From an uncultured Terracidiphilus sp. (GTDB lineage Bacteria; Acidobacteriota; Terriglobia; Terriglobales; Acidobacteriaceae), in contig CAZMHC010000005.1 in assembly GCA_964565955.1 (NCBI GenBank), forward strand, positions 11,560 through 75,559: a stretch of DNA of 64,000 bases. Direction: 5' to 3'. Each line of letters opens with the position of its first letter. Positions within the stretch are counted from its first letter, which is position 1. Under the pieces are notes generated by a model. The model had not been told where the DNA came from. It saw only the letters and a list, made by a program, of their open reading frames with translations, and made no database searches. Shown here piece by piece: positions 1 through 52,803 of this stretch. The position numbers were made by a program, and so were the translations under genes.

Positions 1-1
1 G

Positions 2-30012: not shown

Positions 30013-30187
30013 GACGGCATTCCTCCGGATTCGATTCTACGCGATTCATGCGCGCGATGAAGTTTTCGGACTGGTAAGTCGGGTGCGGAGCGGGCGCGGC
30101 GAGAGCTACCGCATTCGAGCCGGAGATTTCCGGCGGAAGTCAGTCTTCATACTCACCAAAATACTTTGAAATCGCGAGGTCACGACA

Positions 30188-33094: not shown

Positions 33095-33715
33095 TTGGTA
33101 AGTCCGATTGCCGCAATCGTACGCCGCATAGCCTTTCGATGGGGCCGCTGCAAAGGTCTGTATCTGCGCATTTGCAAACCGGGCGCGCGGGAATATACGC
33201 GATTCATGAAACTGCATGGCGGCTTTCATGCGATAGGGGAGCATTGCAGCATTCTTCCCAGCACGAACTTTACCGATCCCGCCTATGTGAAGCTGGGGAA
33301 TAACGTACATTTCTCGAACTGCACCCTGGTCGGTCACGACGGCGCGGTGACGATGTTGAATCGGGCCTACGACGCAAGACTGGATTCGGTGGGCAAAATC
33401 GATATCCGCGACAATGTGTTTATCGGCTACGGAGCGATCGTGCTTCCCGGCGTGACGATCGGACCGAACGCCATCGTTGCCGCCGGCGCGGTCGTCAACC
33501 GGGATGTCGCTTCGGGAGACATTGTCGGTGGAGTTCCGGCGAAGCCCATCGGAAAGGTAGACGATCTTGTCGCCAGGCTCCAGGCAAGAACGGACGGCCT
33601 GCCGTGGAGCGACCTGATTCGGAAGCGCGGGATCGATGTCGATGCGGAGATGGAGGAGGAACTGGTTCGGCGCAGGGTCGAGCATTTCTACGGGCAACCG
33701 CGGGACCGGGACTGA
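33095..33715 (+). CDS. Hexapeptide-repeat (LbH) acyl/acetyltransferase
   Basis: TTG start. Left-handed beta-helix repeats read IGNNVHFSNCTLVGHDG, IRDNVFIGYGAIVLPGVTIGPNAIVAAGAVV and GGVPAKPIG. Confidence 0.8.
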   Translation: MVSPIAAIVRRIAFRWGRCKGLYLRICKPGAREYTRFMKLHGGFHAIGEHCSILPSTNFTDPAYVKLGNNVHFSNCTLVGHDGAVTMLNRAYDARLDSVGKIDIRDNVFIGYGAIVLPGVTIGPNAIVAAGAVVNRDVASGDIVGGVPAKPIGKVDDLVARLQARTDGLPWSDLIRKRGIDVDAEMEEELVRRRVEHFYGQPRDRD

Positions 33716-33863
33716 AGATTGCGGTCGACATTTAGTCCGCATCGGGGCGGCCGCGGTTGGAACCGCGAATTGGATGGCAACGTTGCGATGTCCGAGTTCC
33801 ATACAAGGAGAATTGCCGCCGAATATGCTAGGATGTATTCGCTTTCACGACGAAAGAATCCCG

Positions 33864-34967
33864 ATGAGAATTGTATTCTTGCTCCCCCAGGAAGGATCGC
33901 GGCCGGCGGGCGGATTCAAGGTTGTGTACGAATACGCCAACCGATTGGCCAAACGCAACCATACAGTCCAGGTGGTGCATATAGCGCAGTTGTTCCACCG
34001 CGGCGCGCGCCTGAGTTTGAGAGACAGATTGCGCGGGTTGAGATATGTGCCATTCGCCCTGAGCGGCAACTGGAGACCGGATCGCTGGTTCAAATTCGAC
34101 CCCAGGGTGAAGCTATCGTGGATGCCGACCATGTCCCGTCTCTTTCTTCCGCGGGCGGATGGGTACATAGCCACATGGTGGACGACGGCGGACCGTCTTG
34201 CGTCTCTGCCCGACTTGCCGGGGAAAAAGCTTTACCTGATTCAACATCTGGAAACCTGGCTCGGCTCGGTCGACGAGGTGATGGCTACCTGGAAGGCGCC
34301 CCTTGAGAAGATCGTGATCGCGCGCTGGCTTGAAGACGTGGCTCACGGGATGGGCGAGAGCTGTCACTACATACCGAACGGGCTGGACTTCACCAAGTTC
34401 GGTTGCGACCTTCCGGCGGAAAGCAGAGATCCAATGCGGCTGGCGATGCTATTCAGCCACGGATTGCCGTGGAAAGGTTCCTTCGATGGACTTTCGGCGC
34501 TTGTGGCTCTGAAAGACAAGCGCCCCGCTCTCGAAGCCGAATTCTTCGGCATCGATGAGCGTCCGCGAGAGCTGCCTTCCTGGATCGTCTACCACAAGAC
34601 GCCCACCCAGGAAGAGCTGCGCCGCATCTACAACCGCGCGTCGATCTTCCTGGCTCCCAGCCACAGCGAGGGATGGGGCCTTCCTCCGTGCGAAGCGATG
34701 ATGTGCGGCGCGGCCGTGGTTGCAACCGATATCGGCGGGCACCGCGAGTTCTGCACCGACGGGGAGACCGCGTTGCTGGTTCCCGCCAAGAATCCCGGAG
34801 CCATTGCCGAGGCGGTCGACAGGCTCATCGAAGATCCGGCGTTGCGCCTGCGGGTGGCGCGGAACGGTCACCGAAATGTCCAAAGATTCACTTGGGAGGT
34901 CGCCTGCGACGCATTCGAACGTGTGTTGCTGACGCCTCTTGCGGACTCCGCAATGTCCCACATCTGA
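33864..34967 (+). CDS. Glycosyltransferase family 4 (GT-B, GT1 superfamily)
   Basis: ATG 33864 (MRIVFLLPQEGSRPAGGFKVV). The C-terminal signature is PSHSEGWGLPPCEAMMCGAAVVATDIGGHREF. The track ORF begins earlier, at 33636. Confidence 0.85.
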   Translation: MRIVFLLPQEGSRPAGGFKVVYEYANRLAKRNHTVQVVHIAQLFHRGARLSLRDRLRGLRYVPFALSGNWRPDRWFKFDPRVKLSWMPTMSRLFLPRADGYIATWWTTADRLASLPDLPGKKLYLIQHLETWLGSVDEVMATWKAPLEKIVIARWLEDVAHGMGESCHYIPNGLDFTKFGCDLPAESRDPMRLAMLFSHGLPWKGSFDGLSALVALKDKRPALEAEFFGIDERPRELPSWIVYHKTPTQEELRRIYNRASIFLAPSHSEGWGLPPCEAMMCGAAVVATDIGGHREFCTDGETALLVPAKNPGAIAEAVDRLIEDPALRLRVARNGHRNVQRFTWEVACDAFERVLLTPLADSAMSHI

Positions 34968-35062: not shown

Positions 35063-36490
35063 TTGATCTCTGACGCTACAGTATCGACGCTTGAGATATG
35101 CGAACCGGAATCGGCGCCTGAAGACCGCGCCGGCGAGGAGCGGATCGCCCAAGAGAAGCTGGAATCGACGGCCATGCGGGCGACGTTCTGGACGGTGGCG
35201 GACTACGGATGCGCGATGGCGCTGCGCGTGGTCAACAGCATGGTTCTCACCCGCCTGCTGATGCCGGAAGCCTTCGGTCTGATGACGCTGGTTACAACGC
35301 TCATCGTGGGAATCAGCCTGGTCTCCGATATAGGCCTGGGACCGAGCGTGATTCAAAACCCGCGCGGGGACGACCCCCAGCTTCTGAACACCGCTTGGAC
35401 CTTGCAGGCGCTGCGCGGCCTGGGCATCTTCGTCGTTTCGCTCATTCTGGCCTGGCCGATGTCGCTGTTCTACCATGAGCCGCGTCTGCTGGCGCTGCTG
35501 CCGGCGCTGGGCGTGAATGTGGTCATCGGCTCCTTCAACAGCACCAATCTGCTTTCCATGTCGCGTCACATGGGGGTGCGCAGGTTGTTTCTGCTGGACT
35601 TCACCACGCAGCTTGTCTCGCTGCTGATCACGGTGGGATGCGCATTGGCGTACAAGTCGGTCTGGGCGCTGGTTGCAGGCGCCATTCTAAGCGCGGCATA
35701 CCGGCTGTCGCTCAGTTTTTACCGGCGACTGATCCCCGGCATCCGAAATTCCTTCTGCTGGCACCGGGAAAGCGTGCACAGCCTGGTTCACTTCGGCAAG
35801 TGGATTCTGCTGGCCACGGCTTTCTACTTCTTCGCGTCGCAGGCGGACCGGCTGATTCTCGGAAGACTGGTCAGCTTCAGCGTACTGGGCGTTTATGGCA
35901 TAGCCTTCTCCGTCTCCGAGATTCCTAGATCGATCATCAACGCATTCGCGCAAAAAGTCGGCTATCCCTTCATCGCCAAAATGTCCCATCTGCCGATCGC
36001 CGAATTCAGGAAAGTCTTCTTGCGCTACCGCTTTGGAGCTTTGCTAGCGGGCGCATCCATGTTATGCCTCATGGTGCATCTGGGCGGATTTCTAGTAACA
36101 AGGATGTATGACCGCCGTTACCATGAAGCAGGGTGGATGGTGCCCATACTTGCGCTTGGCCTGTGGCATACTCTGATGTATGCCACAACCATGCCGGCGC
36201 TCTTTACGCTTGGAAAGTCGCGGTACGCGGCGATCGGCAATGCGTCCTACTGCATCGCGGTGGTATCGGCCATTCCTATAGCCTTTCATTTCTTCGGTTT
36301 GATCGGCGCGGTGGTGGCCGTGGCCGGCGGGGATTTGCCGCTCTATTTCGTCACTGTTGCTGGAGCCAGCCGGGAGGGCGTTTCGACGTGGAGGCAAGAC
36401 CTACAAGTAACCGCAATCTTTCTTGCCCTTCTGGGGCTCGGTCTCGCTCTGCGGATTTCTTTCTTCGGCTGGAAAGGACTTTCCATCTAG
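35063..36490 (+). CDS. Wzx-type oligosaccharide flippase (MOP superfamily polysaccharide biosynthesis protein)
   Basis: At least 12 predicted TM segments. The N-terminal LTRLLMPEAFGLMTL motif is typical of Wzx/RfbX. The start is uncertain (TTG 35063 or ATG 35174). Confidence 0.8.
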   Translation: MISDATVSTLEICEPESAPEDRAGEERIAQEKLESTAMRATFWTVADYGCAMALRVVNSMVLTRLLMPEAFGLMTLVTTLIVGISLVSDIGLGPSVIQNPRGDDPQLLNTAWTLQALRGLGIFVVSLILAWPMSLFYHEPRLLALLPALGVNVVIGSFNSTNLLSMSRHMGVRRLFLLDFTTQLVSLLITVGCALAYKSVWALVAGAILSAAYRLSLSFYRRLIPGIRNSFCWHRESVHSLVHFGKWILLATAFYFFASQADRLILGRLVSFSVLGVYGIAFSVSEIPRSIINAFAQKVGYPFIAKMSHLPIAEFRKVFLRYRFGALLAGASMLCLMVHLGGFLVTRMYDRRYHEAGWMVPILALGLWHTLMYATTMPALFTLGKSRYAAIGNASYCIAVVSAIPIAFHFFGLIGAVVAVAGGDLPLYFVTVAGASREGVSTWRQDLQVTAIFLALLGLGLALRISFFGWKGLSI

Positions 36491-36554: not shown

Positions 36555-38513
36555 ATGGCCACTGCGGAAACGACGCAAAGCGCATGGGAGATCGCCCCGG
36601 AGACAACGGAGCGGGGGCAGGACGGCGAGGCTCAACTTGCGCTGAAGCCGTTATGGCAAACCTTCGACGAAATCGCGGCAAAACACGCCGAGCGGGTCGC
36701 GTTGAGCTTTGTCGGAGGGCAGCTTACTTATCGCGAACTTGAGGCGCGGGCCAGCCAACTCGCTCGCCGTCTTCGCGGCCTGGGGGTCGGCCCGGAATCG
36801 CTGGTGGGCATCTATCTGGAGCGGTCGGCGGAAGCGATCGTAGCGCTGGTGGCCATTCTCAAAGCCGGGGGAGCGTATCTGCCGCTCGATCCAGCCTATC
36901 CGGGCGAGCGGGTAGCCGCCATTCTCGACGATGCCCGGCCCACGGTTCTTCTGACCCAAGAGCGTCTTCTCGACAAACTGCCCGCGCACGGCGCGCACAC
37001 CATTTGCCTCGATGGAGAGAGCGTGGCGAATCGCGGCGCGGAGAGCGCCGAGGTCGAGGCGGAATCCGGATTGGATCACCTGGCCTATGTCATCTACACT
37101 TCGGGGTCGACGGGAAAGCCCAAGGGCGTGATGGTGACGCACGCCAATGTGGCGCGGCTGTTGAGCGCGACCGAGGAGCGGTTTCACTTCGACGAGAACG
37201 ACGTCTGGACGCTCTTCCATTCCCTTGCCTTCGACTTCTCGGTTTGGGAGATATGGGGATGCCTGCTGCACGGCGGAAGACTGGCGATCGTACCCTTCAC
37301 GGTCTCGCGTTCGCCGGAGGAGTTCCACGATCTGTTGGAGAGGGAGCGGGTTACGGTTCTGAATCAGACGCCGTCGGCGTTCTATCAGTTGATGACCGTG
37401 GACCACGCGCGGCGGTCGCCGAAGCTGGCCTTGAGAACGGTGATCTTCGGCGGCGAGGCGTTGAACTTCAAGACGCTGCGGACGTGGTTTGCGACCCATG
37501 ACGACCTGAAGCCGCAGTTGGTGAATATGTACGGCATTACCGAGACCACCGTTCATGTAACTTATCGGGAGATCACGGCGGCCGACGCGGCGGATGGGGC
37601 GCGCAGCCTGATTGGCGTTCCGATTCCGGATTTGCAACTTCACCTTCTTGGCGACGACGGCAAGCCGGTGGCGGCAGGCGAGGTGGGCGAGATATGCGTG
37701 GGCGGGGCGGGCGTGGCGCGCGGTTATCTGAACCGCCCCGAACTGAACGCGGAGCGCTTTGCGGCGGATACTTTTTCGGGGATTCCGGGCGCGCGGCTGT
37801 ACAAATCCGGCGATTTGGCGCGTCTTTTGCCGAACGGCGAAGTGGAGTATCTCGGCCGCGGGGACGCGCAGGTAAAGATACAGGGATTTCGCATAGAGCT
37901 GGGCGAGATTGAAGCCGCTTTGACGAGCTATGGGCGGATACGGGAAGCGCGCGTGGTTGCCCATACGGATGAGGCGGGGACGAAGCGGCTGGCGGCGTAT
38001 TACGTGACCCAAGGGGATGCCGCTCTTCCCACGCGCGAATTGAGCGCGTATCTGAGCGCCAAGCTGCCGCCCTGGATGATGCCCTCCTTTTATGTGGCTA
38101 TCCCGGCCTTTCCACTGACTCCTCACGGCAAAGTGGATTACGCCGCGCTGCCGGAGCCGGCGACGGGATCGGCGCGCGGCGGCGGGGAAAGCGAAGGCAC
38201 GGACCTGGAGCGGAAGGTCGCCGGCGTATGGCGGGAAGCGCTGAGCGCGGATCGCGTGGGGCTTGACGACAACTTCTTCGACATCGGTGGAACTTCGCTG
38301 CTGCTGGCGTCTGTCCATCTCAATTTGCAAAGGCTCTTCGACAAAAAGATCCCCATTGCGGACCTCTTCGCGTACACCACGGTTCGCGCGCTGGCGGAAA
38401 GGCTGGGAGGTTCGGTCCAGGATTCCGGCGCGTGGCAAACGGCGCAGAATCAGGCACAGAAGCGGCGGGCGGCATTTGCGCGCGCCCGAGCGGGAAAGAG
38501 GACGGCATTATGA
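36555..38513 (+). CDS. NRPS adenylation-thiolation (A-T) didomain protein; predicted Thr-activating
   Basis: ATG 36555 has an AGGA RBS; the track ORF starts at GTG 36507. A-domain cores are LAYVIYTSGSTGKPKGV, FDFSVWE, NMYGITETTVH, YKSGDLAR and GRGDAQVKIQGFRIELGEIE. The PCP core is FFDIGGTSLL. The Stachelhaus residues, read by motif alignment, are DFWNIGMVHK. Confidence 0.92.
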   Translation: MATAETTQSAWEIAPETTERGQDGEAQLALKPLWQTFDEIAAKHAERVALSFVGGQLTYRELEARASQLARRLRGLGVGPESLVGIYLERSAEAIVALVAILKAGGAYLPLDPAYPGERVAAILDDARPTVLLTQERLLDKLPAHGAHTICLDGESVANRGAESAEVEAESGLDHLAYVIYTSGSTGKPKGVMVTHANVARLLSATEERFHFDENDVWTLFHSLAFDFSVWEIWGCLLHGGRLAIVPFTVSRSPEEFHDLLERERVTVLNQTPSAFYQLMTVDHARRSPKLALRTVIFGGEALNFKTLRTWFATHDDLKPQLVNMYGITETTVHVTYREITAADAADGARSLIGVPIPDLQLHLLGDDGKPVAAGEVGEICVGGAGVARGYLNRPELNAERFAADTFSGIPGARLYKSGDLARLLPNGEVEYLGRGDAQVKIQGFRIELGEIEAALTSYGRIREARVVAHTDEAGTKRLAAYYVTQGDAALPTRELSAYLSAKLPPWMMPSFYVAIPAFPLTPHGKVDYAALPEPATGSARGGGESEGTDLERKVAGVWREALSADRVGLDDNFFDIGGTSLLLASVHLNLQRLFDKKIPIADLFAYTTVRALAERLGGSVQDSGAWQTAQNQAQKRRAAFARARAGKRTAL

Positions 38514-41500
38514 GCGGTCCGGAAAACGAAAATCGACTGGAAGGCGTTGCGATCGTCGGTATGTCGGGCAAGTTCCCCGGCGCGCCGGACCTGGAATCCT
38601 TCTGGGCAAACGTCTTGGCGGGCACGGACACCATCACTCGCTTTTCGCGCGCCGAGTTGGAAGCGAGAGACCGCGCCTCCGTCGAGTTCGGCCCGGACTA
38701 CGTGGCCGCCCACGGCGTTTTGCAAGGCGCCGAGATGTTCGATGCGGGGTTCTTCGGGATTCCGCCCCGCGAAGCCGATTTCATGGACCCGCAGCACCGG
38801 CTGTTTCTGGAAACCTGCTGGAATGCGCTGGAGGACGGAGGATTCGATCCGGCGCAGTACCCTGGACAGATCGGCGTATTCGGCGGATGCAGCCTGAACA
38901 CCTATCTGCTGGCCAACCTGAGCGCGAGCCGGGAATTCATCGACGAACTTACCGGCAACTATCAGGTCGGCGAGTTCCAAGCCTTGCTGGGCAACGACAA
39001 GGATTTTCTTTGCACTCGGGCGGCCTACAAGCTGAACCTGCGCGGGCCATGCCTGACGGTGCAGGCGGCGTGCGCCACCTCGCTGGTCGCCATCTGCCAG
39101 GCCAGCCAGAGCCTGTTGACCTATCAATGCGATATGGCGCTGGCCGGGGGCGTTTCGGTCACCTTTCCGCAGTATCGCGGATACGTCAATCAGGAAGGCA
39201 GCATGGGTTCGCAAGACGGACGCTGCCGCCCCTTCGACGCCGACGCGACCGGCACCGTCTTCGGGCATGGGGTGGGAGTGGTGCTGCTGAAGCGGCTCGA
39301 AGACGCGATCGCCGACGGCGACCGGATCGATGCCGTGATTCGCGGCTTTGCGGTGAACAACGACGGCGCGGCCAAGGTCAGCTACATGGCCCCCGGCGTG
39401 GAAGGCCAAACGGCGGCGATCGCCTCCGCCCAGGCCATGGCGGGCGTCAGCGCCGACGCAATAACCTACGTGGAAGCGCACGGCACCGCAACGCCGCTGG
39501 GCGATCCGGTGGAGGTTGCCGCGCTCACCCGCGCCTTCCGTCAAAGCACGCAACGCAGCGGCTTCTGCGCCCTGGGCAGCACCAAGGCGAATATCGGCCA
39601 TCTGGACGCCGCGGCCGGAGTCAGCGGGCTGATCAAGACGGTGCTGGCCATGCGCCACCGGACGATTCCGCCGGTCGGCAACTTCCGCCGGCCGAATCCG
39701 CGCATCGATTTCGCAAGCACTCCTTTTTACGTGAACGGCGATGCCGCGCCCTGGCTGTCCGAGGGTCCGCGCATGGCGGGGGTGAGCGCCTTCGGCGTGG
39801 GCGGAGTGAATGCGCATCTGGTGCTGGAAGAGGCGCCGAAAGACGGTGGCGATCGGCCTGCCCGCCCCGCCCAGTTGCTTTGCGTATCGGCGCGTTCCGA
39901 AGCCGCGCTCGATGCCGCGTTGAGCAACCTGGCGCGGCATCTCAAGGAAAATCCGGAGCAGGAATTGGCGGACGTATCCCACACTCTCCAGATCGGGCGG
40001 CGAGGCTTCGATCGTCGCGCCTCGGTGGTCTGCTCCAGTGTGGACGATGCGGCGCGCATCCTGGCGGATTCGGGAAACCGGAAGATTCACAGGTCTTCCA
40101 ACGTCCTTGCCCGGCCCCAGGCGATATTTCTCTTTACCGGACAGGGCGCGCAGTTTGCCGGAATGGGCGGAACGCTCTATCGGACGGAGCCGGTCTATCG
40201 AGAACAGATCGACGAGTGCGCCGAGATTCTGCGGCCCCTGCTCGATCTGGATATACGCACTCCGCTCTTTCCGAAAGAAGCCGATGCAAGCGCCGCCGCG
40301 CTGCATGAAACCCGGCTGGCCCAGCCGGCGCTGTTTGTCACCGAACTGGCAATGGCCCGGCTATGGATGGAGTGGGGAATCGAACCGAAGGCCATGGCCG
40401 GCCATAGCCTGGGCGAATTTGTCGCCGCCGTAATAGCCGGCGCGATGAGCCGCGAAGACGGTCTCCGGCTGGTGGCCGAGCGCGGGCGGCTCATGCAATC
40501 CATGGAGCGCGGAGCGATGCTCTCCGTGAGGTTGAGCGAAGAGCGGATCACTCCACTGCTGGACGAGCGAACTTCGCTTGCCGCGCTGAACGGCCCGTCT
40601 TTGTGCGTGGCATCCGGGCCAGTCGAAGCCATCGAGGAACTGGAGAGGCGGCTGGAGCGGGAGTCGGTCGGATGCAAACGCCTGCGGACTTCTCACGCCT
40701 TCCACTCGGCCATGATGGACCCGATGCTGGATGCCTTCGAGGCGGAGGTGCGGCGGACGGCGTTGCGGGCGCCCTCGATTCCATACGTGTCGGGAGTGAC
40801 CGGCGCCTGGATTACGCCCGAGGAAGCGGTTTCTCCGCGCTACTGGAGATACCATTGCCGCAAGCCGGTGCGCTTCGCGGAGGCGGCGGCGCTATTGCTC
40901 GATTTGCCCGAAGCGGTGCTGCTTGAAGTGGGGCCTGGGCAGACGCTGACCGCCCTTGCGTGCCAGCAGCGCGGCACTCGCGCCATCCCGATCGTGGCGT
41001 CGATGGCGGAGCGCGACGCCGAGGCGGTTGGCTCGGAGACCATGCTGGAGGCATTGGGCCGGTTGTGGGAGGTTGGCATTCAGCCGGAATGGAAGCGATT
41101 CTGGAGCCACGAGCGCAGACAGCGCCTCTCGCTGCCCACATATCCCTTCGAGCGCAAGAAGCACTGGATCGACCCGCCGCCGCAAGCGGCAACGGACAAT
41201 GCCCCTCGGCCAGCCGCGGCGGAGAGTGCCCTTGAGCAGGCCGGGGCCTCGCTTCGAGCATCTGAAGATCAAATTGAAAGAGAAACCGCTATGACGACGG
41301 ACGCAAATGCAATCGCTCCCGAACGCCGGCTCCGGCTTCAACCCATGGTTGCAAGCCTCTTTGAAGAACTGAGCGGCATCGCCACCGGCCCAGATTCCTT
41401 CGACACGTCCTTCATGGAGCTGGGACTCGACTCTCTCTTCCTGACCCAGGCGACCCAGGCCGTGCAGCGCCGCTTCGGCGTGAAGGTGACCTTCCGGCAG

Positions 41501-44500
41501 ATGGTGGAACAGTATTCGAGCATTGGCGCGCTCGCGGAACGATTGGACTCGATTCTTCCCGCCGACGCCTTTCCTGCGGAGCAGCCGCAAGCGCCGGTGG
41601 CCGCGGTTGCCGCCGAGCAGGCTGTTTCAGCATTGGCCGTTGCAGCGTCAGCCATTCCAGGGTCGTCCGTCGCGCCCGGTTCGCCGCTGGAAGCGCTGCT
41701 CCAAGCGCAGATGCAAGCCATGTCCCAACTCTTCGAGCGGCAACTGGCGGCGGTGCGCGGAGCGGCATCTGCCGCGGAGCCAGTGCGTGGAGCGGCATCG
41801 GCTGCGGAGCCAGTGCGTGGAGCGGCGCCGGCCTCAACCCCAACCCAGACCGCCCAGGCGCAAATCTCCGCGCCTGTTGCCGCCAAGAAAGCCGCGGCGA
41901 GCGAAGCCGCGCCAACCGGCGGATTCAAGACGCACGGACCTTTCAAGCCGGTTCAAGCGGGGTCGAAGGACGGCTTGACGGAGCCGCAGCGCGAGTTCAT
42001 TCAGGCGCTCGTCGCCCGCTACTCGCGCCGCAGCGGAAAGTCCAAGGAGTATACGCAGCGGCACCGCCAGCATCTTACCGACCCCCGCGCCGTCGCCGGC
42101 TTCCGCTCCTTGTGGAAGGAGATGGTCTATCCGTTGGTGACCAACCGCTCCAAAGGCTCACGCATCTGGGACCTTGACGGCAACGAGTACATCGACATCG
42201 TGAACGGATTCGGCGCGATCATGTTCGGGCACGGGCCGGAGTTCGTGAGCGAAGCGGTGCACAAACAGATCGACCTTGGGGTGGAGATCGGCCCACAGAG
42301 TTCATTGGCCGGCGAGGTCGCGGATTTGATCTGCGAACTGACCGGCATGGATCGCGCCGCATTCTGCAATACCGGCTCCGAAGCGGTGATGGCGGCCTTG
42401 CGTATGGCCCGCGCCGTGACCGCGCGCGACAAGATCGTATATTTCACCGGGGACTACCACGGCACCTTCGACGAAGCGCTGCTGCGCGCCACCCCGCACG
42501 GCGCGGCCCCCATCGCTCCGGGCATCATGGCGGGCAACGTGACGGTGCTGGAGTACGGCGCGGATGCGTCTTTGGAGTTTATTCGCGCCCACGGCGAGGA
42601 GATCGCGGCGGTGATGGTCGAGCCTATCCAGAGCCGCCATCCGGAGGTGCAGCCGCGGGAATTTCTGCATGAGTTGCGCAAAATCACCGAGCAGGCGGGA
42701 ACGGCGCTGATCTTCGACGAGGTAGTTACCGGCTTCCGCGTGGCTCTGGGCGGGGCACAGGAGTATTACGGGATTCGCGCCGATCTCGCCACTTACGGCA
42801 AGGTCATCGGCGGCGGCTATCCGATCGGCGTGGTGGCCGGCAAGGCGGAGTATCTGGACACGCTCGACGGCGGCGCTTGGCAATATGGGGACGATTCGGC
42901 GCCGGAGGTGGGAATGACCTTCTTTGCCGGAACCTTCGTCCGCCATCCTCTGGCTCTGGCGGCGGCCAAGGCGTCTCTGCTGCATTTGAAGGCAGCCGGA
43001 CCGGAGCTGCAGGAGACGCTTAGCCGCAAGGTGGCGGAGGCGGCGCGGGCGGTGGAAGCGAGCTTCCGCGAGGCCGGCCTCGATACGCCCGTGCATCCCT
43101 GCGGCGCGTGGTTCACCTTCAATCTGCCCGCCGAAGCCCGCTTCGGCAGTCTGCTTTATTGCCTGATGCGCGAGAAAGGCGTACATATCCTGGAGAGTTA
43201 CCCATGCTTCTTTACCACCGCGCACTCCGACGAGGATTTTGCGCGCGTGGTCGCGACCTTCCGCGAAGCGATTCTGGAGATGAGACAGGGCGGAATGCTG
43301 CCGGCCTCGGCGGAGCCCGCTCTGTCAGCGCCGGCCGCCGCCGTGCCGGCACTGCATCCGGAAGCGCGCCGCGAGTCTCCAGACAGCGCGCCATTGACCG
43401 AATCGCAACGCGAGATATGGCTGGCCGCCACGCGCGGAGACGACGCGAACTGCGCCTTCAACGAATCTCTCCTGCTTCGCTTGCGTGGAGCGGCCAACGA
43501 GGAGGAGGTGCGCTACTCGCTTGAAGCGGCCATCGCCCGGCACGACGCTCTGCGATCGACGGTCGACCCGAACGAGGAATGCATGCGCATCGCGCCCGCC
43601 TTCACAGGCCAGATTCCATTCGTGGATCTGAGCGCGCTTTCCGCCGAGGAACGGGGAGCGTTCCTCGATGCAAGGATTGCCGAGGAGGGACGCACCCCCT
43701 TCGATCTTTCCAGCGGCCCCTTGGTGCGGGCGATACTCTTCCGCACCGCGCCCGATGAACTGGAGTTGTTGCTGACCGGGCATCACATCGTTCTTGACGG
43801 ATGGTCGTCGAATCAACTGCTGGAGGACGCGGGCGGAATCTACAGCGCGGCAAAGACCAAGTCGAAACCGGCCCTGGCTCCGCTGATGCCTTTCAGCAGC
43901 TATGCCCTGAAGGAGCGGGAGGAAACGCAGGCGGGCGCTTACGCCGAGAACGAACGCTACTGGGTGGAGGTCTTCGCGGGTCGGGCGCCGGTGCTGGACC
44001 TGCCGACGGACCGCCCGCGCCCGGCCATGAAGACCTACAGCGGCGCCACGCTGCAAACCTCGCTGGGCGCGGAGTTATCCGCGGAACTGAAGAAGGCGAG
44101 TTCCCGGCTGGGATGCACGCAGTACGTGATTCTGCTTTCGGCGTTTCAAATACTGATGCACCGGCTGACGCGCCAATCCGAAGTGGTGGTGGGAATCTCG
44201 GCCGCTGGGCAGGCCTTGTTCGACGACGCGAGCCTGGTCGGACATTGCGTGCACTTCCTGCCGATGTTGAGCGTTCTGCCCAAATCCCGCACGGTCAAGG
44301 ACCACCTTGCGGCCACCCGCGGACAACTCCTCGACGCCTACGATCATCAGGAGTTCACCTACGGAACGCTGTTGCGCAAGTTGCCGATTCCGCGCAGCGC
44401 GAACCGCTTGCCGCTCATCGAAGTCCAGTTCAATCTGGAAAAGTTGGGGACCAATCTCCATTTCGAGGGACTCCAGACCGAGGTGCGGTCGAATCCGAAG

Positions 44501-46567
44501 GGATTCGTGAATACGGATCTCTTCCTGAACGTCGTGGAAACCGCCGACAACCTGTTGCTGAATTGCGATTACAACACGGACCTGATCGACTCAAGCACTC
44601 TCGAACGGTGGATGTCGTCGTATGCGGCGATCCTGCGCGGAATGGCCGCGAATGCAAGCCGGGATGTGGAGGAGTTGGAGCTGATGGATGAGAAGGAGCG
44701 AAGGCTGGTGCTGGAGGAGTGGAACCGCACCGCCGTGGACTTCGGCCCATTCGAGCCGATCTACCGAACCATCGAAAGGCAGGCGGCCAAAGCGCCGAAT
44801 CGAGTTGCCACCATCTGCGAGGGAACGGAGTGGACGTATCGGCAACTCAACGAGTACAGCAACCGCATGGCGCGGCACCTGCGCCGCCAGGGCGTCAAAG
44901 AAGGTTCGCTGGTGGGCGTATGCCTGGAACGCTCGCACCAGATGCTGGGCGCGGTGCTGGGCGTACTCAAGGCGGGCGCTGCGTATCTGCCCCTCGATCC
45001 CAGCCATCCGACGAACCGTCTGCAAATGGTGATGGAGGATGCGCAGGCATCGCTGCTGCTTACCCAGGAGCCTATCGCCGCGCGCCTGCAAACCGGCGCT
45101 CGAGTGGTTTGCCTGGACAGCGAACAGACCTTGTGGGCGCGGGAGAGCGGCGCGGACCTGGATAGAACGAACGCGCCGGATTCCCTGGCATACGTGATCT
45201 ATACGTCGGGGTCCACAGGGCGCCCCAAGGGCGTCGCCATCGAACATGGCGCGTTGCACAACCTGCTGCGCAGCATGGAACGGGAACCGGGCCTGAGTGC
45301 AGACGATACGTTGGTCGCGGTCACCACGCTGTCCTTCGATATTGCGGCCCTGGAACTGTTTTTGCCGTTGATGGTCGGCGCCCGTCTGGCAATAGCCTCC
45401 AGGGAGCAGGTTTTCGACGGCTTCCGGCTTCTGAACCTGCTGGAGCAGTCGCGGGCGACCGTGATGCAGGCAACGCCGTCCGGTTGGCGGATACTGCTCG
45501 AGGCCGGCTGGAAAGGCCAGCCTCGGCTGAAGGTTCTGTGCGGCGGCGAGGCCTTGCCCCGCGATTTGGCCGATTCTCTGCTGGACGCGAGCGACCAGGT
45601 GTGGAACGTCTACGGGCCGACGGAAACCACCATCTGGTCTTCGGCGACCCGGCTTGAAAAGCTGTCTGGGCCGGTGCCGATCGGACCGCCCATCGCCAAT
45701 ACCCAGTTCTACGCGCTCGACGAGCGTCTGCAACCGGTGCCGGTGGGAGTGATCGGGGAGTTGTTCATAGGCGGCGCCGGGCTGGCGCGCGGCTACTGGA
45801 AGAGACCGGAATTGACCGCGCAAAAATTTCTGCCCAATCCCTTTGGCGACGGACGCATCTATCGCACCGGCGATCTGGCGCGCTGGCTTCCCGACGGTCA
45901 CATCGAATTGCTGGGCCGGACCGACTTCCAGGTGAAGGTGCGGGGCTTCCGCATTGAACTGGGTGAAATCGAAACCGCGTTGGCCAGCCATCCGGCGGTG
46001 CGCGACGCGGTGGCGGCGGCGGTGGAATTCGGACCGGGAGACAAGCGGTTGGCTGCCTGGGTCGACTCGGCGCAGACCCCGCCGCCCGCGGATTTGGAGG
46101 CGCAACTGCACTCTCTGCTCTCCGAAAAGCTTCCGGAGTATATGCGTCCGGCCATCGTCACGGTGCTGCAGGCGCTGCCCCGGACCGCCAACGGCAAGAT
46201 CGACCGCAAGTCACTGCCGAATCCGGCCATCGCGGGCAAGGCGCACAAACGTCCGTTCACGCCGGCGGAGACGCCCGAACAAAAGAAACTGGCGGCAATC
46301 TGGGCCGAAGTCTTGCAATTGGATCAGGTCAGCATCACCGACAGCATCTTCGAGCTGGGAGCCGATTCGCTGCTCATCTTCCGCATCTCGGTGCGCGCCG
46401 GTCGCGAGGGGCTGCCCATCCAACCCGCGCAGATATTCCAGCACCGCACCATCGCCGATCTGTCGAGGGTTCTTGAGGAGACCAAGTCCGCGAGAGTGGA
46501 AAACGCCTCCGCCGGTCCGGCCATCACCGCTGTTTCGCGAAGGGAATTTCGGAGGACGAAAGCCTGA
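38510..46567 (+). CDS. Hybrid PKS-NRPS megasynthase: KS-AT-ACP-aminotransferase(class III)-C-A-T
   Basis: ATGA overlap with the upstream stop (38510-38513). KS is about 38540-39835 (AACATS Cys, EAHGTAT, NIGH). AT is about 40124-40981 (GHSLGE, HAFH). ACP is about 41333-41551 (LGLDSL). The PLP aminotransferase is about 41969-43291 (GKVIGGGYPIG). C is about 43385-44716 (HHIVLDGWS). A is about 44744-46231 (LAYVIYTSGSTGRPKGV, FDIAALE, NVYGPTETTIW; code DILQLGVIWK). PCP is about 46265-46486 (FELGADSLL). Confidence 0.95.
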   Translation: MSGPENENRLEGVAIVGMSGKFPGAPDLESFWANVLAGTDTITRFSRAELEARDRASVEFGPDYVAAHGVLQGAEMFDAGFFGIPPREADFMDPQHRLFLETCWNALEDGGFDPAQYPGQIGVFGGCSLNTYLLANLSASREFIDELTGNYQVGEFQALLGNDKDFLCTRAAYKLNLRGPCLTVQAACATSLVAICQASQSLLTYQCDMALAGGVSVTFPQYRGYVNQEGSMGSQDGRCRPFDADATGTVFGHGVGVVLLKRLEDAIADGDRIDAVIRGFAVNNDGAAKVSYMAPGVEGQTAAIASAQAMAGVSADAITYVEAHGTATPLGDPVEVAALTRAFRQSTQRSGFCALGSTKANIGHLDAAAGVSGLIKTVLAMRHRTIPPVGNFRRPNPRIDFASTPFYVNGDAAPWLSEGPRMAGVSAFGVGGVNAHLVLEEAPKDGGDRPARPAQLLCVSARSEAALDAALSNLARHLKENPEQELADVSHTLQIGRRGFDRRASVVCSSVDDAARILADSGNRKIHRSSNVLARPQAIFLFTGQGAQFAGMGGTLYRTEPVYREQIDECAEILRPLLDLDIRTPLFPKEADASAAALHETRLAQPALFVTELAMARLWMEWGIEPKAMAGHSLGEFVAAVIAGAMSREDGLRLVAERGRLMQSMERGAMLSVRLSEERITPLLDERTSLAALNGPSLCVASGPVEAIEELERRLERESVGCKRLRTSHAFHSAMMDPMLDAFEAEVRRTALRAPSIPYVSGVTGAWITPEEAVSPRYWRYHCRKPVRFAEAAALLLDLPEAVLLEVGPGQTLTALACQQRGTRAIPIVASMAERDAEAVGSETMLEALGRLWEVGIQPEWKRFWSHERRQRLSLPTYPFERKKHWIDPPPQAATDNAPRPAAAESALEQAGASLRASEDQIERETAMTTDANAIAPERRLRLQPMVASLFEELSGIATGPDSFDTSFMELGLDSLFLTQATQAVQRRFGVKVTFRQMVEQYSSIGALAERLDSILPADAFPAEQPQAPVAAVAAEQAVSALAVAASAIPGSSVAPGSPLEALLQAQMQAMSQLFERQLAAVRGAASAAEPVRGAASAAEPVRGAAPASTPTQTAQAQISAPVAAKKAAASEAAPTGGFKTHGPFKPVQAGSKDGLTEPQREFIQALVARYSRRSGKSKEYTQRHRQHLTDPRAVAGFRSLWKEMVYPLVTNRSKGSRIWDLDGNEYIDIVNGFGAIMFGHGPEFVSEAVHKQIDLGVEIGPQSSLAGEVADLICELTGMDRAAFCNTGSEAVMAALRMARAVTARDKIVYFTGDYHGTFDEALLRATPHGAAPIAPGIMAGNVTVLEYGADASLEFIRAHGEEIAAVMVEPIQSRHPEVQPREFLHELRKITEQAGTALIFDEVVTGFRVALGGAQEYYGIRADLATYGKVIGGGYPIGVVAGKAEYLDTLDGGAWQYGDDSAPEVGMTFFAGTFVRHPLALAAAKASLLHLKAAGPELQETLSRKVAEAARAVEASFREAGLDTPVHPCGAWFTFNLPAEARFGSLLYCLMREKGVHILESYPCFFTTAHSDEDFARVVATFREAILEMRQGGMLPASAEPALSAPAAAVPALHPEARRESPDSAPLTESQREIWLAATRGDDANCAFNESLLLRLRGAANEEEVRYSLEAAIARHDALRSTVDPNEECMRIAPAFTGQIPFVDLSALSAEERGAFLDARIAEEGRTPFDLSSGPLVRAILFRTAPDELELLLTGHHIVLDGWSSNQLLEDAGGIYSAAKTKSKPALAPLMPFSSYALKEREETQAGAYAENERYWVEVFAGRAPVLDLPTDRPRPAMKTYSGATLQTSLGAELSAELKKASSRLGCTQYVILLSAFQILMHRLTRQSEVVVGISAAGQALFDDASLVGHCVHFLPMLSVLPKSRTVKDHLAATRGQLLDAYDHQEFTYGTLLRKLPIPRSANRLPLIEVQFNLEKLGTNLHFEGLQTEVRSNPKGFVNTDLFLNVVETADNLLLNCDYNTDLIDSSTLERWMSSYAAILRGMAANASRDVEELELMDEKERRLVLEEWNRTAVDFGPFEPIYRTIERQAAKAPNRVATICEGTEWTYRQLNEYSNRMARHLRRQGVKEGSLVGVCLERSHQMLGAVLGVLKAGAAYLPLDPSHPTNRLQMVMEDAQASLLLTQEPIAARLQTGARVVCLDSEQTLWARESGADLDRTNAPDSLAYVIYTSGSTGRPKGVAIEHGALHNLLRSMEREPGLSADDTLVAVTTLSFDIAALELFLPLMVGARLAIASREQVFDGFRLLNLLEQSRATVMQATPSGWRILLEAGWKGQPRLKVLCGGEALPRDLADSLLDASDQVWNVYGPTETTIWSSATRLEKLSGPVPIGPPIANTQFYALDERLQPVPVGVIGELFIGGAGLARGYWKRPELTAQKFLPNPFGDGRIYRTGDLARWLPDGHIELLGRTDFQVKVRGFRIELGEIETALASHPAVRDAVAAAVEFGPGDKRLAAWVDSAQTPPPADLEAQLHSLLSEKLPEYMRPAIVTVLQALPRTANGKIDRKSLPNPAIAGKAHKRPFTPAETPEQKKLAAIWAEVLQLDQVSITDSIFELGADSLLIFRISVRAGREGLPIQPAQIFQHRTIADLSRVLEETKSARVENASAGPAITAVSRREFRRTKA

Positions 46568-49170
46568 TGTGGAACGCAACGGAAAAGACAGTTCTCTCCA
46601 ACGATAGCAAGCGCGACGAGGCCGAGGCGGACCGGGAAGTTTTTGTGATGCCGGCAACGCCCAGTCAGGCGCGCTTCTGGCTGCTGCACCAAATGCATCC
46701 CGGCAATCACGCGCTGAATATGCCGATCGCATGGACCTGCCGGGGAAGGTTCGATCCCGATCTGGCGGCGTCCGCGCTGGGAGAGTTGGCGCGCCGCCAT
46801 GAGTCGTTGCGCACCACCTTCGAGGTGGTGGACGGCAAGGTGTCGCAGGTGATTCATCCGCCTTGCGACGTACCGCTCCCGATCGAAGATTTGCGGCCGC
46901 TGGCGGACGATGCGCGCCGGCAGCAAGTGGACGCGATCATCCAGCGCCACGCCCGCATCCGGATCGATCTGGAAAAGGGGCCGCTTCTGTTGGCGCGGGC
47001 GATCCGAATGGGCGCCGAGGAGCATATTCTTCTCATCACCATCCATCACAGCGTCTGCGACGGATGGTCGAACGGGGTGGCGCTTCGGGATTTTGCCGCA
47101 ATCTACGACGGATTGGCGCGCCGGGTTCCCGTTCAACTGCCGGAGTTGCCGATCCAGTTCGGGGATTACGCGGTCTGGCTGGAGCAGTTGAGAAGAGAGA
47201 AGGAGCATTCGGAGTCGCTGCGGTTCTGGCGCGAGACCCTGGGCGGAAACTTCACCCCGCTTCGCATCCGGCGCGACTTCCCCGGCGGCGGAGCCGAAGA
47301 ACAGGGCACCATCGAGACTCTTCTTCTGAATCCGGAACAGGCGCGGCGGGCGCGGGATTTCTGCGCCGAGCGGGGAGTGACGCTCTATATGCTGCTGCTG
47401 TCCGTCTACGCCGCAACGCTCACCCGGCTGACCGGACAGGAAGACATTCTGATCGGCACGCCCTGCGCCAACCGGCCTCCGGAGACGCAAGACCTGATCG
47501 GTCCCTTTTCCAATCCTCAGCTAATTCGGATGCGGATGGAAAAGGAGGACACTTTCGCGGCGGTTCTCGATCGCGTCCGCGACTGGGCGCTGCGCGCGGT
47601 GGTTCATCAGAATCTTCCCTTCGAGGATCTGAACGAAGACGAGTTCTTCTCGCGCGAGGAGAACCAGATTTCTCTCCAGGTTTACTTCATCTATCAGAAG
47701 GCCTTCATGCAGGTCCAGCATACGCCTTCCCTGGAGATCGTCCCCTTGCGTTCCGTCAGTCCGGGAACCATGTTCGACCTGATGCTGAGCATCGTGGAAC
47801 GCGCCGAAGGCCCGCGTCTGCAATTGGAGTACAATCCCGGGTTCTTCCGCGACACGACCATACAACGCATCTTGCGGCTCTATGAGAGCATCCTTGAAAC
47901 CATGCTTTCGAACACGGAAGGCATGGTGGTGGAAGAGCCGGCGCGGGAGGAAAGCGAAGCGCGGCCGTCCAGCGCGGATGCGGATCGACTTGTAGCCGAA
48001 GAGGCCGCCGGCCGGAATGGATTTTTGAGCGCCGGTCTGAACGATGGCGCGCCAGCGGCCGACAAGCGGGGCGCGGATCGCTTGGCGCCCCGCGATGCGC
48101 TGGAGATGCAGTTGTCTGGAATCTGGGAGACGGCGATGGGGATCAAGAACCTGAGCGTCCGAGACAGTTTCTTCGACCTCGGCGGGCAATCCCTGGCCGC
48201 AATGCGGATCGTTTCCCGCGTCAACAAGATATATTCGCTCGATTTCGGCCTGGCTGTGCTGTTCTCCGGGCACACGGTCGAGCGGATGGCGGAGTTGGTA
48301 CGGAATCGTCTTGCCGCCAACAGCAACTCCTCGATCGTTCCCATGCAGTCGCGTGGATCGGCAGCCCCGCTTTTCATCATTCACGGCGCGGGGGGGAACA
48401 TTATCCGCTTCTACCAGCTTGCCATGCTGGTCGGGACCGACCATCCGATCTATGGCGTACAGGCGCAGTCGCTGCTGGCCGACCAGCCCGCGCTCCTGTT
48501 TCTTGAAGATCAAGCGGCGTATTACCTGGCCGAGATACGAAAGGTTCAGCCCAAGGGACCGTACTACTTTCTGGGGTATTCGTATGGCGGCACGGTGGCT
48601 CTTGAAATAGCGCATCAGTTGCGCGCTCTGGGAGAGCGTGTGGAACTGCTCGGTTTGCTCGACAGCCGGCAACGCGATTCGATCGCAATGACGCAACGGA
48701 AGGACCCCGCGCGGGTGAAACTGGATCGCCGCATCTCCCGCTTCCGGGGCAATCTTTCCGCTCTCTCTGTTCGGGAAACGGCAGTCTACCTGTGGGAAAA
48801 ACTGTATACCAGAAGCCTGCGCCGGGCCTACGCGGCGGCGGCGGCGATGGGCTTTCGCTCCGTGCCATCGTTCATGAAGAGCACCGACGATATTTGCTAT
48901 GTGGCGGCCATGCACTACCGGCCGCGGCCGTGGCATGGATCGGTGACGCTGTTTCGCGCCTCCGTCCAGCCGGATTCCCGGTTGCCGCTGGACTTGGGAT
49001 GGGCGCCTCTGGCGGAGGGCGGAGTCGAAATATGCGACTTGCCCGGCGATCACGACCTGATATTCCGCGAACCGAACATTCAGGTTTTGGCGGCGCAGAT
49101 CAGGGCGCGCCTGGAACGATCCAATGCGGCCGAGGTTGGCGACCCTGAACCGGCGGCCTGCGCAAAGTAA
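46567..49170 (+). CDS. NRPS termination protein C-T-TE lacking an adenylation domain
   Basis: TGATG overlap with the upstream stop. C is about 46639-47961 (HHSVCDGWS). PCP is about 48079-48306 (FFDLGGQSL). TE is about 48364-49146 (GYSYGG). At 867 aa there is no room for an A domain, and no A-domain core motifs are present. Confidence 0.9.
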   Translation: MWNATEKTVLSNDSKRDEAEADREVFVMPATPSQARFWLLHQMHPGNHALNMPIAWTCRGRFDPDLAASALGELARRHESLRTTFEVVDGKVSQVIHPPCDVPLPIEDLRPLADDARRQQVDAIIQRHARIRIDLEKGPLLLARAIRMGAEEHILLITIHHSVCDGWSNGVALRDFAAIYDGLARRVPVQLPELPIQFGDYAVWLEQLRREKEHSESLRFWRETLGGNFTPLRIRRDFPGGGAEEQGTIETLLLNPEQARRARDFCAERGVTLYMLLLSVYAATLTRLTGQEDILIGTPCANRPPETQDLIGPFSNPQLIRMRMEKEDTFAAVLDRVRDWALRAVVHQNLPFEDLNEDEFFSREENQISLQVYFIYQKAFMQVQHTPSLEIVPLRSVSPGTMFDLMLSIVERAEGPRLQLEYNPGFFRDTTIQRILRLYESILETMLSNTEGMVVEEPAREESEARPSSADADRLVAEEAAGRNGFLSAGLNDGAPAADKRGADRLAPRDALEMQLSGIWETAMGIKNLSVRDSFFDLGGQSLAAMRIVSRVNKIYSLDFGLAVLFSGHTVERMAELVRNRLAANSNSSIVPMQSRGSAAPLFIIHGAGGNIIRFYQLAMLVGTDHPIYGVQAQSLLADQPALLFLEDQAAYYLAEIRKVQPKGPYYFLGYSYGGTVALEIAHQLRALGERVELLGLLDSRQRDSIAMTQRKDPARVKLDRRISRFRGNLSALSVRETAVYLWEKLYTRSLRRAYAAAAAMGFRSVPSFMKSTDDICYVAAMHYRPRPWHGSVTLFRASVQPDSRLPLDLGWAPLAEGGVEICDLPGDHDLIFREPNIQVLAAQIRARLERSNAAEVGDPEPAACAK

Positions 49171-49185: not shown

Positions 49186-50139
49186 ATGACCATTCGCCAC
49201 GTGTACATGGTGCTCTCGCCGCGCTCCCTGGGCTATGCGGGAGACGCGCTGGAGAGTTTGTTTTGCAACTCTCTTGAAGACCTTCACCTTAGTCTCGTCA
49301 CCGACTCCGAGCGGGACAAGGAGGAGTTGTCCGAGAAGCTGGCGACGCTCGATGCCAAGGCGCATCGGTGGAAGGTTTATTCGGAGCAAGACCTGGCCGA
49401 GCGGGAGGAAGCGCTCTTCGCCGAGCACGGCAACCTGCGCGCTTTCCGGCGCGGCCACCCCTGCTGGCGCAAGATCACGGATCCGTTGCTGCTGAGCGAT
49501 CCGGGCGAGGAACTGGTGCTGCTCGACCCGGACCTTTACTTCCCCAACCGTTTTCAGTTCGAGCGAACGCCGCCGGACGGTTTGCTGCTGATGTGGCAGC
49601 GTCCCAACTGCCTCTTTCCACCGGAGACGGTTAGAACGGCCATCGGCGCGGGGATTCGGCTTGCCCACCATGTGGACATCGGGGTCGCGCACTGGCGCGC
49701 GTCGGCGGACCTGGACTGGCTGGACTGGCTGGTGGGCAGGCTGGGAGGCGTCAAGCTGCCGCGCATCATGCACATCGAAGCGATTGTGTGGGCGGCACTG
49801 GCCATGCGATCGGGCGGAGGCTATCTCGATCCCGATCGCTGGAAATGCTGGCGCCGTTCGCCGGCCAAGCGAGTGATGTCGAAGCTGGGCGTAAGCGGAC
49901 GGCGCATTCTCGCATCGGAACCCTGGTCCGGCTTGAAGTGCTTTCACGCGGGCGGGGAAGCGAAATGGTGGCTGCACGAGGCCAGGGAAGCGGGGTTGCT
50001 GGACGGCGGGGCGACGCTGGACCAGCCAGGCCGAATCCTCCCTTTTGTGGAACTGACGCCGGCATACTTCGCGCGCGAGCGGGCGTTCAAGAGAGTGCTC
50101 GGCGCTCTGGGGTATTACCATATCTTCCGTACCGCGTGA
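49186..50139 (+). CDS. Hypothetical protein, possibly a GT-A fold (GT8-like) nucleotide-sugar transferase
   Basis: GGAGAAAGG RBS lies 6 nt upstream. Weak resemblance to GT8 comes from a DxD-like LLDPDLYF and a C-terminal FHAGGEAKWW, compared with H..G..KPW. No confident family assignment. Confidence 0.45.
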   Translation: MTIRHVYMVLSPRSLGYAGDALESLFCNSLEDLHLSLVTDSERDKEELSEKLATLDAKAHRWKVYSEQDLAEREEALFAEHGNLRAFRRGHPCWRKITDPLLLSDPGEELVLLDPDLYFPNRFQFERTPPDGLLLMWQRPNCLFPPETVRTAIGAGIRLAHHVDIGVAHWRASADLDWLDWLVGRLGGVKLPRIMHIEAIVWAALAMRSGGGYLDPDRWKCWRRSPAKRVMSKLGVSGRRILASEPWSGLKCFHAGGEAKWWLHEAREAGLLDGGATLDQPGRILPFVELTPAYFARERAFKRVLGALGYYHIFRTA

Positions 50140-51435: not shown

Positions 51436-51452
51436 AGACAGGTCGGTCGCAC

Positions 51453-52796: not shown

Positions 52797-52803
52797 GAGG
52801 ACT

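Follow-up and report, generated by a model that had tools for sequence, protein, structure and literature searches.

A 64,000-nucleotide stretch of the genome of an uncultured Terracidiphilus sp. of the Acidobacteriaceae (assembly GCA_964565955.1, contig CAZMHC010000005.1, positions 11,560 to 75,559 of the forward strand; hereafter the window, numbered from its first base) carries at 36555-49170 what reads as a three-protein, three-module assembly line combining nonribosomal peptide synthetase (NRPS) and polyketide synthase (PKS) domains. Its parts are a small adenylation-thiolation (A-T) protein, a hybrid protein with the order ketosynthase (KS), acyltransferase (AT), acyl carrier protein (ACP), aminotransferase (AMT), condensation (C), A and T, and a terminal C-T-thioesterase (TE) protein, and the genes lie within an exopolysaccharide (EPS) locus. 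That these three genes form one three-module line, that they constitute an optional cassette of the EPS locus and that the fate of the product is linked to the polysaccharide is, taken jointly, a tentative reading for which doubt slightly outweighs belief. The cluster itself is conserved and uncharacterised, and both its architecture and its genomic setting are unusual. A preliminary description of this DNA, confined to 36555-46567, had proposed a threonine starter, one malonyl extension, beta-transamination and addition of one glycine, and had suggested a glycan substituent as the product.

The interval 36555-46567 comprises exactly two genes, both on the + strand, as are all features below unless stated otherwise. 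The first (36555-38513, with its ATG at 36555) encodes the loading module A1-T1 (Pfam AMP-binding 6.9e-98, AMP-binding_C and PP-binding), with an A domain at ~36663-38132 and a T domain at ~38214-38405 whose serine lies within IGGTSL (38283-38300). All motifs quoted in the preliminary description for the two A domains, KS, AT and AMT were located in the sequence, those of A1 being FDFSVWE, VLNQTPS, VIFGGE, NMYGITETTVH and GKVD. Specificity codes were read by MAFFT alignment of the A domains to a fragment of GrsA-PheA, which is usable as a reference because it returns the published PheA code DAWTIAAICK at the published offsets. The alignment gave DFWNIGMVHK for A1, the threonine code at 10/10 positions including Asp235 and Lys517, and DILQLGVIWK for the A domain of the hybrid, A2, both identical to the codes first proposed. 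A1 also passed TIGR01733, a model of amino-acid adenylation, scoring 456 bits where 317 are required, and its best solved relatives are NRPS A domains throughout (LgrA and others). Judged by code, model score and relatives, A1-T1 is a genuine amino-acid A-T didomain and not a fatty-acyl-AMP ligase, as had been suggested, while its threonine specificity is a prediction from the code. The code DFWN[I/V]GMVHK recurred in every Acidobacteriaceae locus examined, in Terracidiphilus, Acidicapsa, Granulicella and Tunturiibacter.

The stop codon of the A-T gene and the start codon of the hybrid gene share ATGA (38510-38513). The hybrid gene (38510-46567, ATG at 38510 and last stop base at 46567) encodes 2685 aa, with Pfam matches to ketoacyl-synt (3.7e-69), Ketoacyl-synt_C, Acyl_transf_1 (2.6e-53) and PP-binding in its PKS part, followed by Aminotran_3 (3.4e-50), Condensation (5.3e-76), AMP-binding (1.3e-89), AMP-binding_C and a second PP-binding; the domain scores of both proteins are far above chance. 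The KS (38540-39685) retains its cysteine in AACATS (39065-39082) and its histidines in EAHGTAT (39473-39493) and NIGH (39590-39601), and the AT (40124-40960) carries GHSLGE (40400-40417) and HAFH (40694-40705). These residues and motifs line up with 8XJY, the best solved KS-AT (E 2.9e-227), and by that alignment the KS is of the condensing kind and the AT of the malonyl type, in agreement with the first assignment. The ACP (approximate limits 41333-41536) has its serine in LGLDSL (41420-41437). The AMT, a class III pyridoxal phosphate (PLP)-dependent domain (Aminotran_3, 42128-43198), aligns end to end with the structure of the MycA AMT, 6KFM (E 3.5e-131), with the Schiff-base lysine of TYGKVIGGG (TYGKIIGGG in 6KFM; YGKVIGGG at 42794-42817), the aspartate of FDEVVTGFR and the NTGSEAV phosphate loop all conserved. 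From this alignment the AMT is MycA-like with its catalytic residues intact. None of the grounds on which the preliminary description would have been abandoned (an A1 for a fatty or aryl acid, different codes, an AMT lacking catalytic residues) was found in silico. Between ACP and AMT, a tandem repeat with a unit of 30 nt (41753-41833; 2.7 copies, 88% matches) encodes Ala/Pro-rich VRGAASAAEP repeats, which probably form a length-variable linker.

Downstream of the AMT, the C domain (43382-44704) contains HHIVLDG (43781-43801) and is followed by A2 (~44774-46198) and T2 (~46286-46471), together 44774-46471. The A2 motifs FDIAALE, VMQATPS, VLCGGE, NVYGPTETTIW and GKID frame a code that matches the glycine code DILQLGLIWK at 9/10 positions, with one conservative L-to-V change. 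Glycine is accordingly the code-based prediction for A2, and the Gly-like code was retained across the 120 homologues listed.

The assembly line continues beyond the interval first described. At TGATG (46565-46569) the ATG of a third gene (46567-49170) lies inside the stop codon of the hybrid gene, and this gene encodes a C domain (~46648-47934), a T domain (~48112-48300) and a TE (~48367-49053) with intact motifs: HHSVCDG in C, GGQSL in T, and GYSYGG and GDHD in TE. No A domain was found in the third gene, where only ~60 residues separate C from T. By domain content the line therefore has three modules, with its release domain outside 36555-46567. The third gene was kept in every orthologous locus. 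The orthologue of Granulicella rosea and that of three related loci is C-A-T-TE with a Gly-type A3 code, whereas the A3-less form occurs in the window and in Terracidiphilus, Acidicapsa and Tunturiibacter. A3 and A2 domains are ~55% identical, which makes A3 an ancient paralogue of A2, no recent duplicate. Because the Granulicella-type orthologues carry a Gly-type A3, a second glycine is likely, and the simplest reading would be that T3 carries glycine in all loci and that A2 charges it in trans in those lacking A3. Among solved structures, the T-TE portion comes closest to the termination module of AB3403 (4ZXH, E 6.7e-40). A Pks13-like TE that acylates a sugar was also considered on account of an NCBIfam Pks13 match; AB3403 and EntF scored far better in the PDB search, so that this match does not specifically favour a sugar as the acceptor.

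We took the A-T protein to be the loader of the KS because of the ATGA coupling, because no other KS loader (fatty-acyl-AMP ligase, CoA ligase or extra ACP) was found among the locus genes and because the two are fused elsewhere: in three distant relatives (P0066, P0113 and P0119; 47-50% identity), an A(Val-like)-T unit is joined directly ahead of KS-AT-ACP-AMT-C-A(Gly). A Bryobacterales locus (F-183, L027) has the three-gene layout of the window with another starter code. Together the fused Val-like relatives and this locus indicate that amino-acid-primed AMT modules are a small family in Acidobacteriota, of which, by the codes, the threonine version is the one fixed in Acidobacteriaceae. The metagenome contig that carries P0066 (L004) encodes A(Val-like)-T-KS-AT-ACP-AMT-C-A(Gly)-T-C-C-T beside a CmlA-like beta-hydroxylase, a sulfotransferase, an APS kinase and two cupin paralogues, gene content which suggests that it may make a sulfated, hydroxylated cousin of the window product.

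AMT-bearing PKS modules are known to make beta-amino acids from beta-keto thioesters of fatty acyl or polyketide chains. The steps proposed here for an amino-acid starter follow from sequence and collinearity rules. A1 would activate L-threonine and load T1, and the KS would join threonyl-S-T1 to malonyl-ACP, supplied by the HAFH-type AT, to give 4-amino-5-hydroxy-3-oxohexanoyl-S-ACP. The MycA-type AMT would then convert the 3-keto group to an amine, creating a vicinal diamine, 3,4-diamino-5-hydroxyhexanoyl, which the C domain would couple to Gly-S-T2. The A-less C-T-TE protein would append a further glycine, T3 presumably being charged in trans by A2, and the TE would free 3,4-diamino-5-hydroxyhexanoyl-Gly-Gly (nominal C10H20N4O5, calculated [M+H]+ 277.15). 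Two JmjC-like oxygenases encoded in the locus may hydroxylate an intermediate or the product. The product first put forward, diaminohydroxyhexanoyl-Gly, thus stands in its threonine, malonyl, transamination and first glycine steps, all as predictions; it fell one module short, at the C-T-TE protein, and left the tailoring genes and possible lactam formation out of account.

Two other readings of the assembly line were weighed against this one. A line that stops after two modules, at glycine, to give 3,4-diamino-5-hydroxyhexanoyl-Gly would agree with modules 1 and 2 as first described, but the hybrid ends at T2 without a release domain, the gene that begins inside its stop codon codes for a C-T-TE protein whose HHxxxDG, GGxS and Ser/His motifs are intact, and that gene, present in every orthologous locus, has its own Gly-type A domain in Granulicella; we regard this as very improbable. 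More improbable still is an arrangement like that of SyrB1, SyrC and SyrE, in which the threonine A-T protein feeds the terminal C-T-TE, perhaps after cupin oxidation and shuttling by an alpha/beta hydrolase, and the KS is primed otherwise. The syringomycin system offers a precedent, and the locus does bring together a stand-alone threonine A-T, an A-less C-T-TE, cupins of the Fe/2OG type and alpha/beta hydrolases. SyrC-type shuttles, however, use cysteine, whereas the thioesterase here is of the serine type (GHSMG), and the cupins are JmjC-like with an HxD hydroxylase triad and not SyrB2-like. This arrangement would also need an alternative KS loader, and no fatty-acyl-AMP ligase, ACP or CoA ligase that could serve as one was found in the locus; A-T is fused to KS in the distant relatives, and the A domain of module 3, where present, is Gly-type and not Thr-type.

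Among known systems, MycA and ItuA (mycosubtilin and iturin) come closest. They share the KS-AT-ACP-AMT-C-A-T order of the hybrid on one polypeptide, with the AMT at the PKS-to-NRPS junction and C-A-T after it. They differ in loading through an N-terminal fatty-acyl-AMP ligase-ACP, where the window has a separate, translationally coupled threonine A-T protein, and in belonging to a line for a cyclic lipoheptapeptide, where the window has only C-A(Gly)-T and C-T-TE downstream; it is the lack of fatty-acyl-AMP ligase loading and of a long lipopeptide line that sets the window hybrid apart from their family. Their product is a beta-amino fatty acid lipopeptide, while a polar vicinal diamine is predicted here, and unlike them the window system sits in a polysaccharide locus of Acidobacteriota. 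In McyE and NdaF (microcystin and nodularin), too, a class III aminotransferase is built into a PKS module and NRPS domains come after it; the KS substrate of McyE, as described, is a long polyketide, the Adda precursor, and the window lacks an mcy-type context. The chemistry would have an analogue in BioF and BioA of biotin synthesis, which couple an amino acid and an acyl unit into an alpha-amino ketone and then make, with a class III PLP aminotransferase, a vicinal diamine (7,8-diaminopelargonate); these enzymes are free-standing and act on free or CoA/ACP substrates, and the C-C bond is formed there by a PLP oxoamine synthase and in the window by a KS.

In 8XJY and 8XJZ, which may be ClbI and ClbH of colibactin, a PKS was solved with a chain labelled 'Peptide synthetase'; chain 8xjz_C matches A1-T1 (E 8.9e-156). 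The matches to these structures fit a KS that takes an aminoacyl or peptidyl chain from an NRPS carrier, although that system, unlike the window, has no AMT after KS-AT. AB3403 of A. baumannii (4ZXH), presumably Gly-specific, is a free-standing C-A-T-TE protein, of which the version in the window lost, or never had, the A domain. With the Dlt system of teichoic acid D-alanylation the window may share the concept alone, an adenylation enzyme and a carrier that put an amino acid on a glycopolymer: no Pfam matches to a DltB-type MBOAT or to DltD were found among the locus genes, and the window, unlike Dlt, has a multi-module line with a PKS step.

The surrounding genes, nearly all co-directional from 17.8 to 57.7 kb, include a priming transferase, Wzx, Wza, a Wzc-like protein and several glycosyltransferases (GTs), and by this content the locus is a Wzx/Wzy-type EPS locus. 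A Wzx-type flippase (35063-36490; Polysacc_synt_3 1.2e-45; ~9 transmembrane (TM) segments) lies directly upstream of the A-T gene, as it does in L001, L003 and L082, and a GT8-like gene (49186-50139) follows the C-T-TE gene. Full-length orthologues of the hybrid (58-82% identity) were numerous in soil and peat data, with named hosts in Terracidiphilus, Acidicapsa, Tunturiibacter, Edaphobacter and Granulicella. Among species-representative genomes, a set outside which the window's own genome falls (best match 73%), a scan recovered the block A-T, hybrid, C(-A)-T-TE, GT8-like, GT4, GT4, GT2 in ~20 Acidobacteriaceae species, with Wzx directly upstream wherever the upstream side was readable.

With the GT8-like protein as seed, a scan of metagenomes retrieved 80 loci (62-85% identity), which were classified where they held enough DNA upstream of the GT8-like gene. 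C-T-TE lay directly 5' of that gene in 45 loci, wzx took this position with a gap of 98-474 nt in 13 otherwise syntenic loci, and something else did so in 10. These 45 syntenic loci with and 13 without them make the NRPS-PKS genes an optional cassette in a variable region of a conserved Wzx/Wzy locus. Presence and absence of the cassette were interleaved on a dendrogram of GT8-like similarity. Searches of the NRPS-less wzx/GT8-like junctions for NRPS relics gave marginal matches only (E 0.02-0.05), which do not distinguish insertion from clean deletion. In the NRPS-less loci reaching far enough upstream, the Wzc, priming transferase and wzx genes were contiguous, meaning that the hydrolase, cupin and type II TE genes that lie among them in the window are absent there too.

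The same junction can hold other genes. In the peat locus L124 (1660-5872) the NRPS-PKS genes are replaced by genes for an ATP-grasp ligase, for a flavoprotein resembling Lys/Orn N-monooxygenases and for a hydrolase of the PAF-AH-like kind, and in a Terracidiphilus locus (L082, 21612-24201) ATP-grasp and flavoprotein genes stand alongside the NRPS genes; amide-forming cassettes seem to have a hot spot at the wzx/GT8-like junction. Divergence of Wzx was looked at as a sign of a changed flippase substrate: Wzx was 85% identical to that of the window in L082, which has the NRPS genes, and 75% in L122, which lacks them, while the GT8-like protein was 80% identical in both, a hint, from one locus of each kind, that Wzx co-varies with the cassette.

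We consider it possible, though we lean somewhat against it, that a cationic pseudopeptide is attached to the polysaccharide or exported with it as a strain-variable decoration. The functional tie to the polysaccharide is drawn from the position of the cassette between wzx and GT genes in ~20 species and 45 metagenome loci, from its co-orientation, from helper genes interleaved at three positions of the locus, from the absence of a separate exporter (no transport genes other than those for Wzx, Wza and Wzc were found there) and from the alternative cassette of L124. A more specific version, in which the NRPS-PKS genes act as a serotype-like Wzx/Wzy cassette that places a vicinal-diamino pseudopeptide covalently on the EPS repeat unit, giving a peptide-decorated, possibly zwitterionic slime in abundant peat Acidobacteria, with the L124-type cassette giving another decoration, seems to us unlikely as a whole. 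The link to the polysaccharide competes with a free secreted molecule made by the same line and the same chemistry, perhaps a cationic signal, chelator or antibiotic, whose location reflects co-regulation or accident. Such a free, co-regulated metabolite is a serious candidate, nearly as likely as association with the glycan, and what belief remains falls on other fates. It would explain why at least 13 loci that lack the cassette still have a conserved and complete polysaccharide locus, and it does not readily explain a wzx/GT junction that is constant across genera, with tight spacing, co-directional genes and helpers at three sites, nor the missing exporter gene, nor an amide-forming alternative in L124 at the same place.

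Several points weigh against a three-module line with an EPS-linked product, and some of them favour the free metabolite directly. Tunturiibacter empetritectus and Granulicella sp. S190 keep compact clusters of phosphopantetheinyl transferase (PPTase), A-T, hybrid, C-T-TE, hydrolase and cupin genes, with no wzx or GT4 gene within 10 kb; these clusters are flanked by unrelated genes, one of them near genes for an RND pump and a GT-C of the PMT family, and they imply that the product can be made without adjacent polysaccharide genes. The glycan substituent of the preliminary description gains support from the constancy of the wzx/GT junction and is weakened by these stand-alone clusters. The TE looks like the usual type I thioesterases of NRPSs (AB3403, EntF) and is no closer to the Pks13 TE, and no aminosugar pathway and no recognisable transacylase gene were found in the locus. 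As to the chemistry, all substrate specificities are code-based predictions, the loading of T3 in trans by A2 is drawn from orthologues alone, and a free gamma-amine near a thioester may lactamise, in which case the product could be cyclic or otherwise different.

Five helper genes are associated with the NRPS genes: those for the PPTase, a type II TE, a membrane-anchored hydrolase and two cupins, all of which except the PPTase were also seen to co-vary with them. The PPTase (17807-18685; Pfam ACPS 6.9e-15, AASDHPPT_N) is of the Sfp type, and its homologues adjoin NRPS genes in L002, L003 and L083. The hydrolase (26729-28123) is a PAF-AH-like alpha/beta hydrolase (PAF-AH_p_II 5.8e-18; GHSFGG) with ~3-4 N-terminal TM helices, and the positive-inside pattern suggests that its catalytic domain is periplasmic. 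Homologues stand beside NRPS genes in L002, L003, L083, L022 and L027; at 28-30% identity the hydrolase accompanies NRPS genes also in Bryobacterales and in an alphaproteobacterial metagenome-assembled genome. The first oxygenase (28124-29170), JmjC/cupin-like with an HLD...H motif, has homologues in L002, L003 and L004 and is, by tblastn, a paralogue of the second (32095-33009; Cupin_8 9.5e-07; YHLDGE...H; weak JMJD5/FIH similarity), which has orthologues at 79% identity in L082 and 56% in L003. Both cupins are found with NRPS genes as far afield as L004, the distant cluster of the Val type. The type II TE (29215-30012, - strand; GHSMG; Pfam Thioesterase 2.8e-47) is overlapped on the + strand by a low-complexity open reading frame (ORF) of 264 aa (29266-30060), which we rejected as a gene: it is the antisense shadow of the thioesterase, and its tblastn match in another genome is explained by conservation of the shadow frame.

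The rest of the EPS locus begins with a UpxY-family NusG-like antiterminator (19683-20612; NF033644 122 bits against a cut-off of 100; Pfam NusG) that has an N-terminal extension of ~130 aa. Assigned by Pfam, there follow a WecG/TagA-type GT fused to a STAS domain (20713-22047), a GT2 (22147-23340), the Wza exporter (23422-24477) and the Wzc-like chain-length/tyrosine-kinase protein (24464-26644); NCBIfam EpsF/Wzc matches within 20713-26644 were weak. The UpxY antiterminator and the WecG/TagA-STAS fusion are each unusual in EPS loci outside Bacteroidota. The priming polyprenyl-phosphate glycosyl-phosphotransferase (30188-31708; Bac_transf 8.3e-69, CoA_binding_3), a hexapeptide acyltransferase (33095-33715) and a GT4 (33636-34967, with its true start probably further downstream) precede wzx. 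Beyond the cassette and the GT8-like gene lie two further GT4 genes (50146-51435 and ORF 51078-52796), a GT2 (52672-53808), a second hexapeptide acyltransferase (53833-54447), a protein with ~9 TM segments and no Pfam or NCBIfam match that is a possible Wzy (54494-56047) and a last GT2 (56645-57703).

The GT8-like protein itself (317 aa; invariant D114-P-D116) belongs to no Pfam or NCBIfam family and has 1351 database homologues at E <= 1e-5, and an identical protein was found on peat metagenome contigs. Its AlphaFold2 model reached a pLDDT of 87 with a 40-sequence alignment, against 37 from the single sequence, and Foldseek matched the model to XXYLT1 (E 5e-8), LARGE1, glycogenin and LgtC. 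From this predicted GT-A fold it may represent an undescribed GT family of acidobacterial EPS loci. A role as an NRPS-specific tailoring enzyme was considered and dropped, the gene being kept at 70-80% identity in NRPS-less loci.

Scans of 17.5-58 kb for sigma-70 promoters and intrinsic terminators gave counts no higher than in shuffled sequences and for that reason carry no information on operon structure. The flanks hold housekeeping genes unrelated to the locus. Upstream (1-17000) these are a PAS histidine kinase, CofD (F420 biosynthesis), a MoxR AAA ATPase with DUF4350/DUF4129 neighbours and a tRNA (15595-15667, - strand), and downstream (57700-64000) an aldo-keto reductase, a Zn-dependent alcohol dehydrogenase, anthranilate synthase component I and PPK2.

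To our knowledge, almost no natural products have been characterised from Acidobacteriota. In the literature searched we found no description of this cluster, of 3,4-diamino acids or vicinal diamines made by an AMT, or of NRPS-PKS genes in an EPS locus. A 2013 survey listed Acidobacteria among the phyla with PLP domains in assembly lines (PMC3870968), and generic antiSMASH tallies exist for Acidobacteriaceae (PMC11354219, PMC12935467, bioRxiv 10.1101/2025.10.02.680145). Priming of an AMT module by an amino acid would yield a vicinal 3,4-diamino acid on an assembly line, a building block not found in that literature, from a system that is conserved in several genera of Acidobacteriaceae and common in peat metagenomes. 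If the peptide is indeed placed on the glycan, the known routes of bacterial polysaccharide diversification would be extended, with a possible bearing on how the slime of Acidobacteria behaves in acidic soils.

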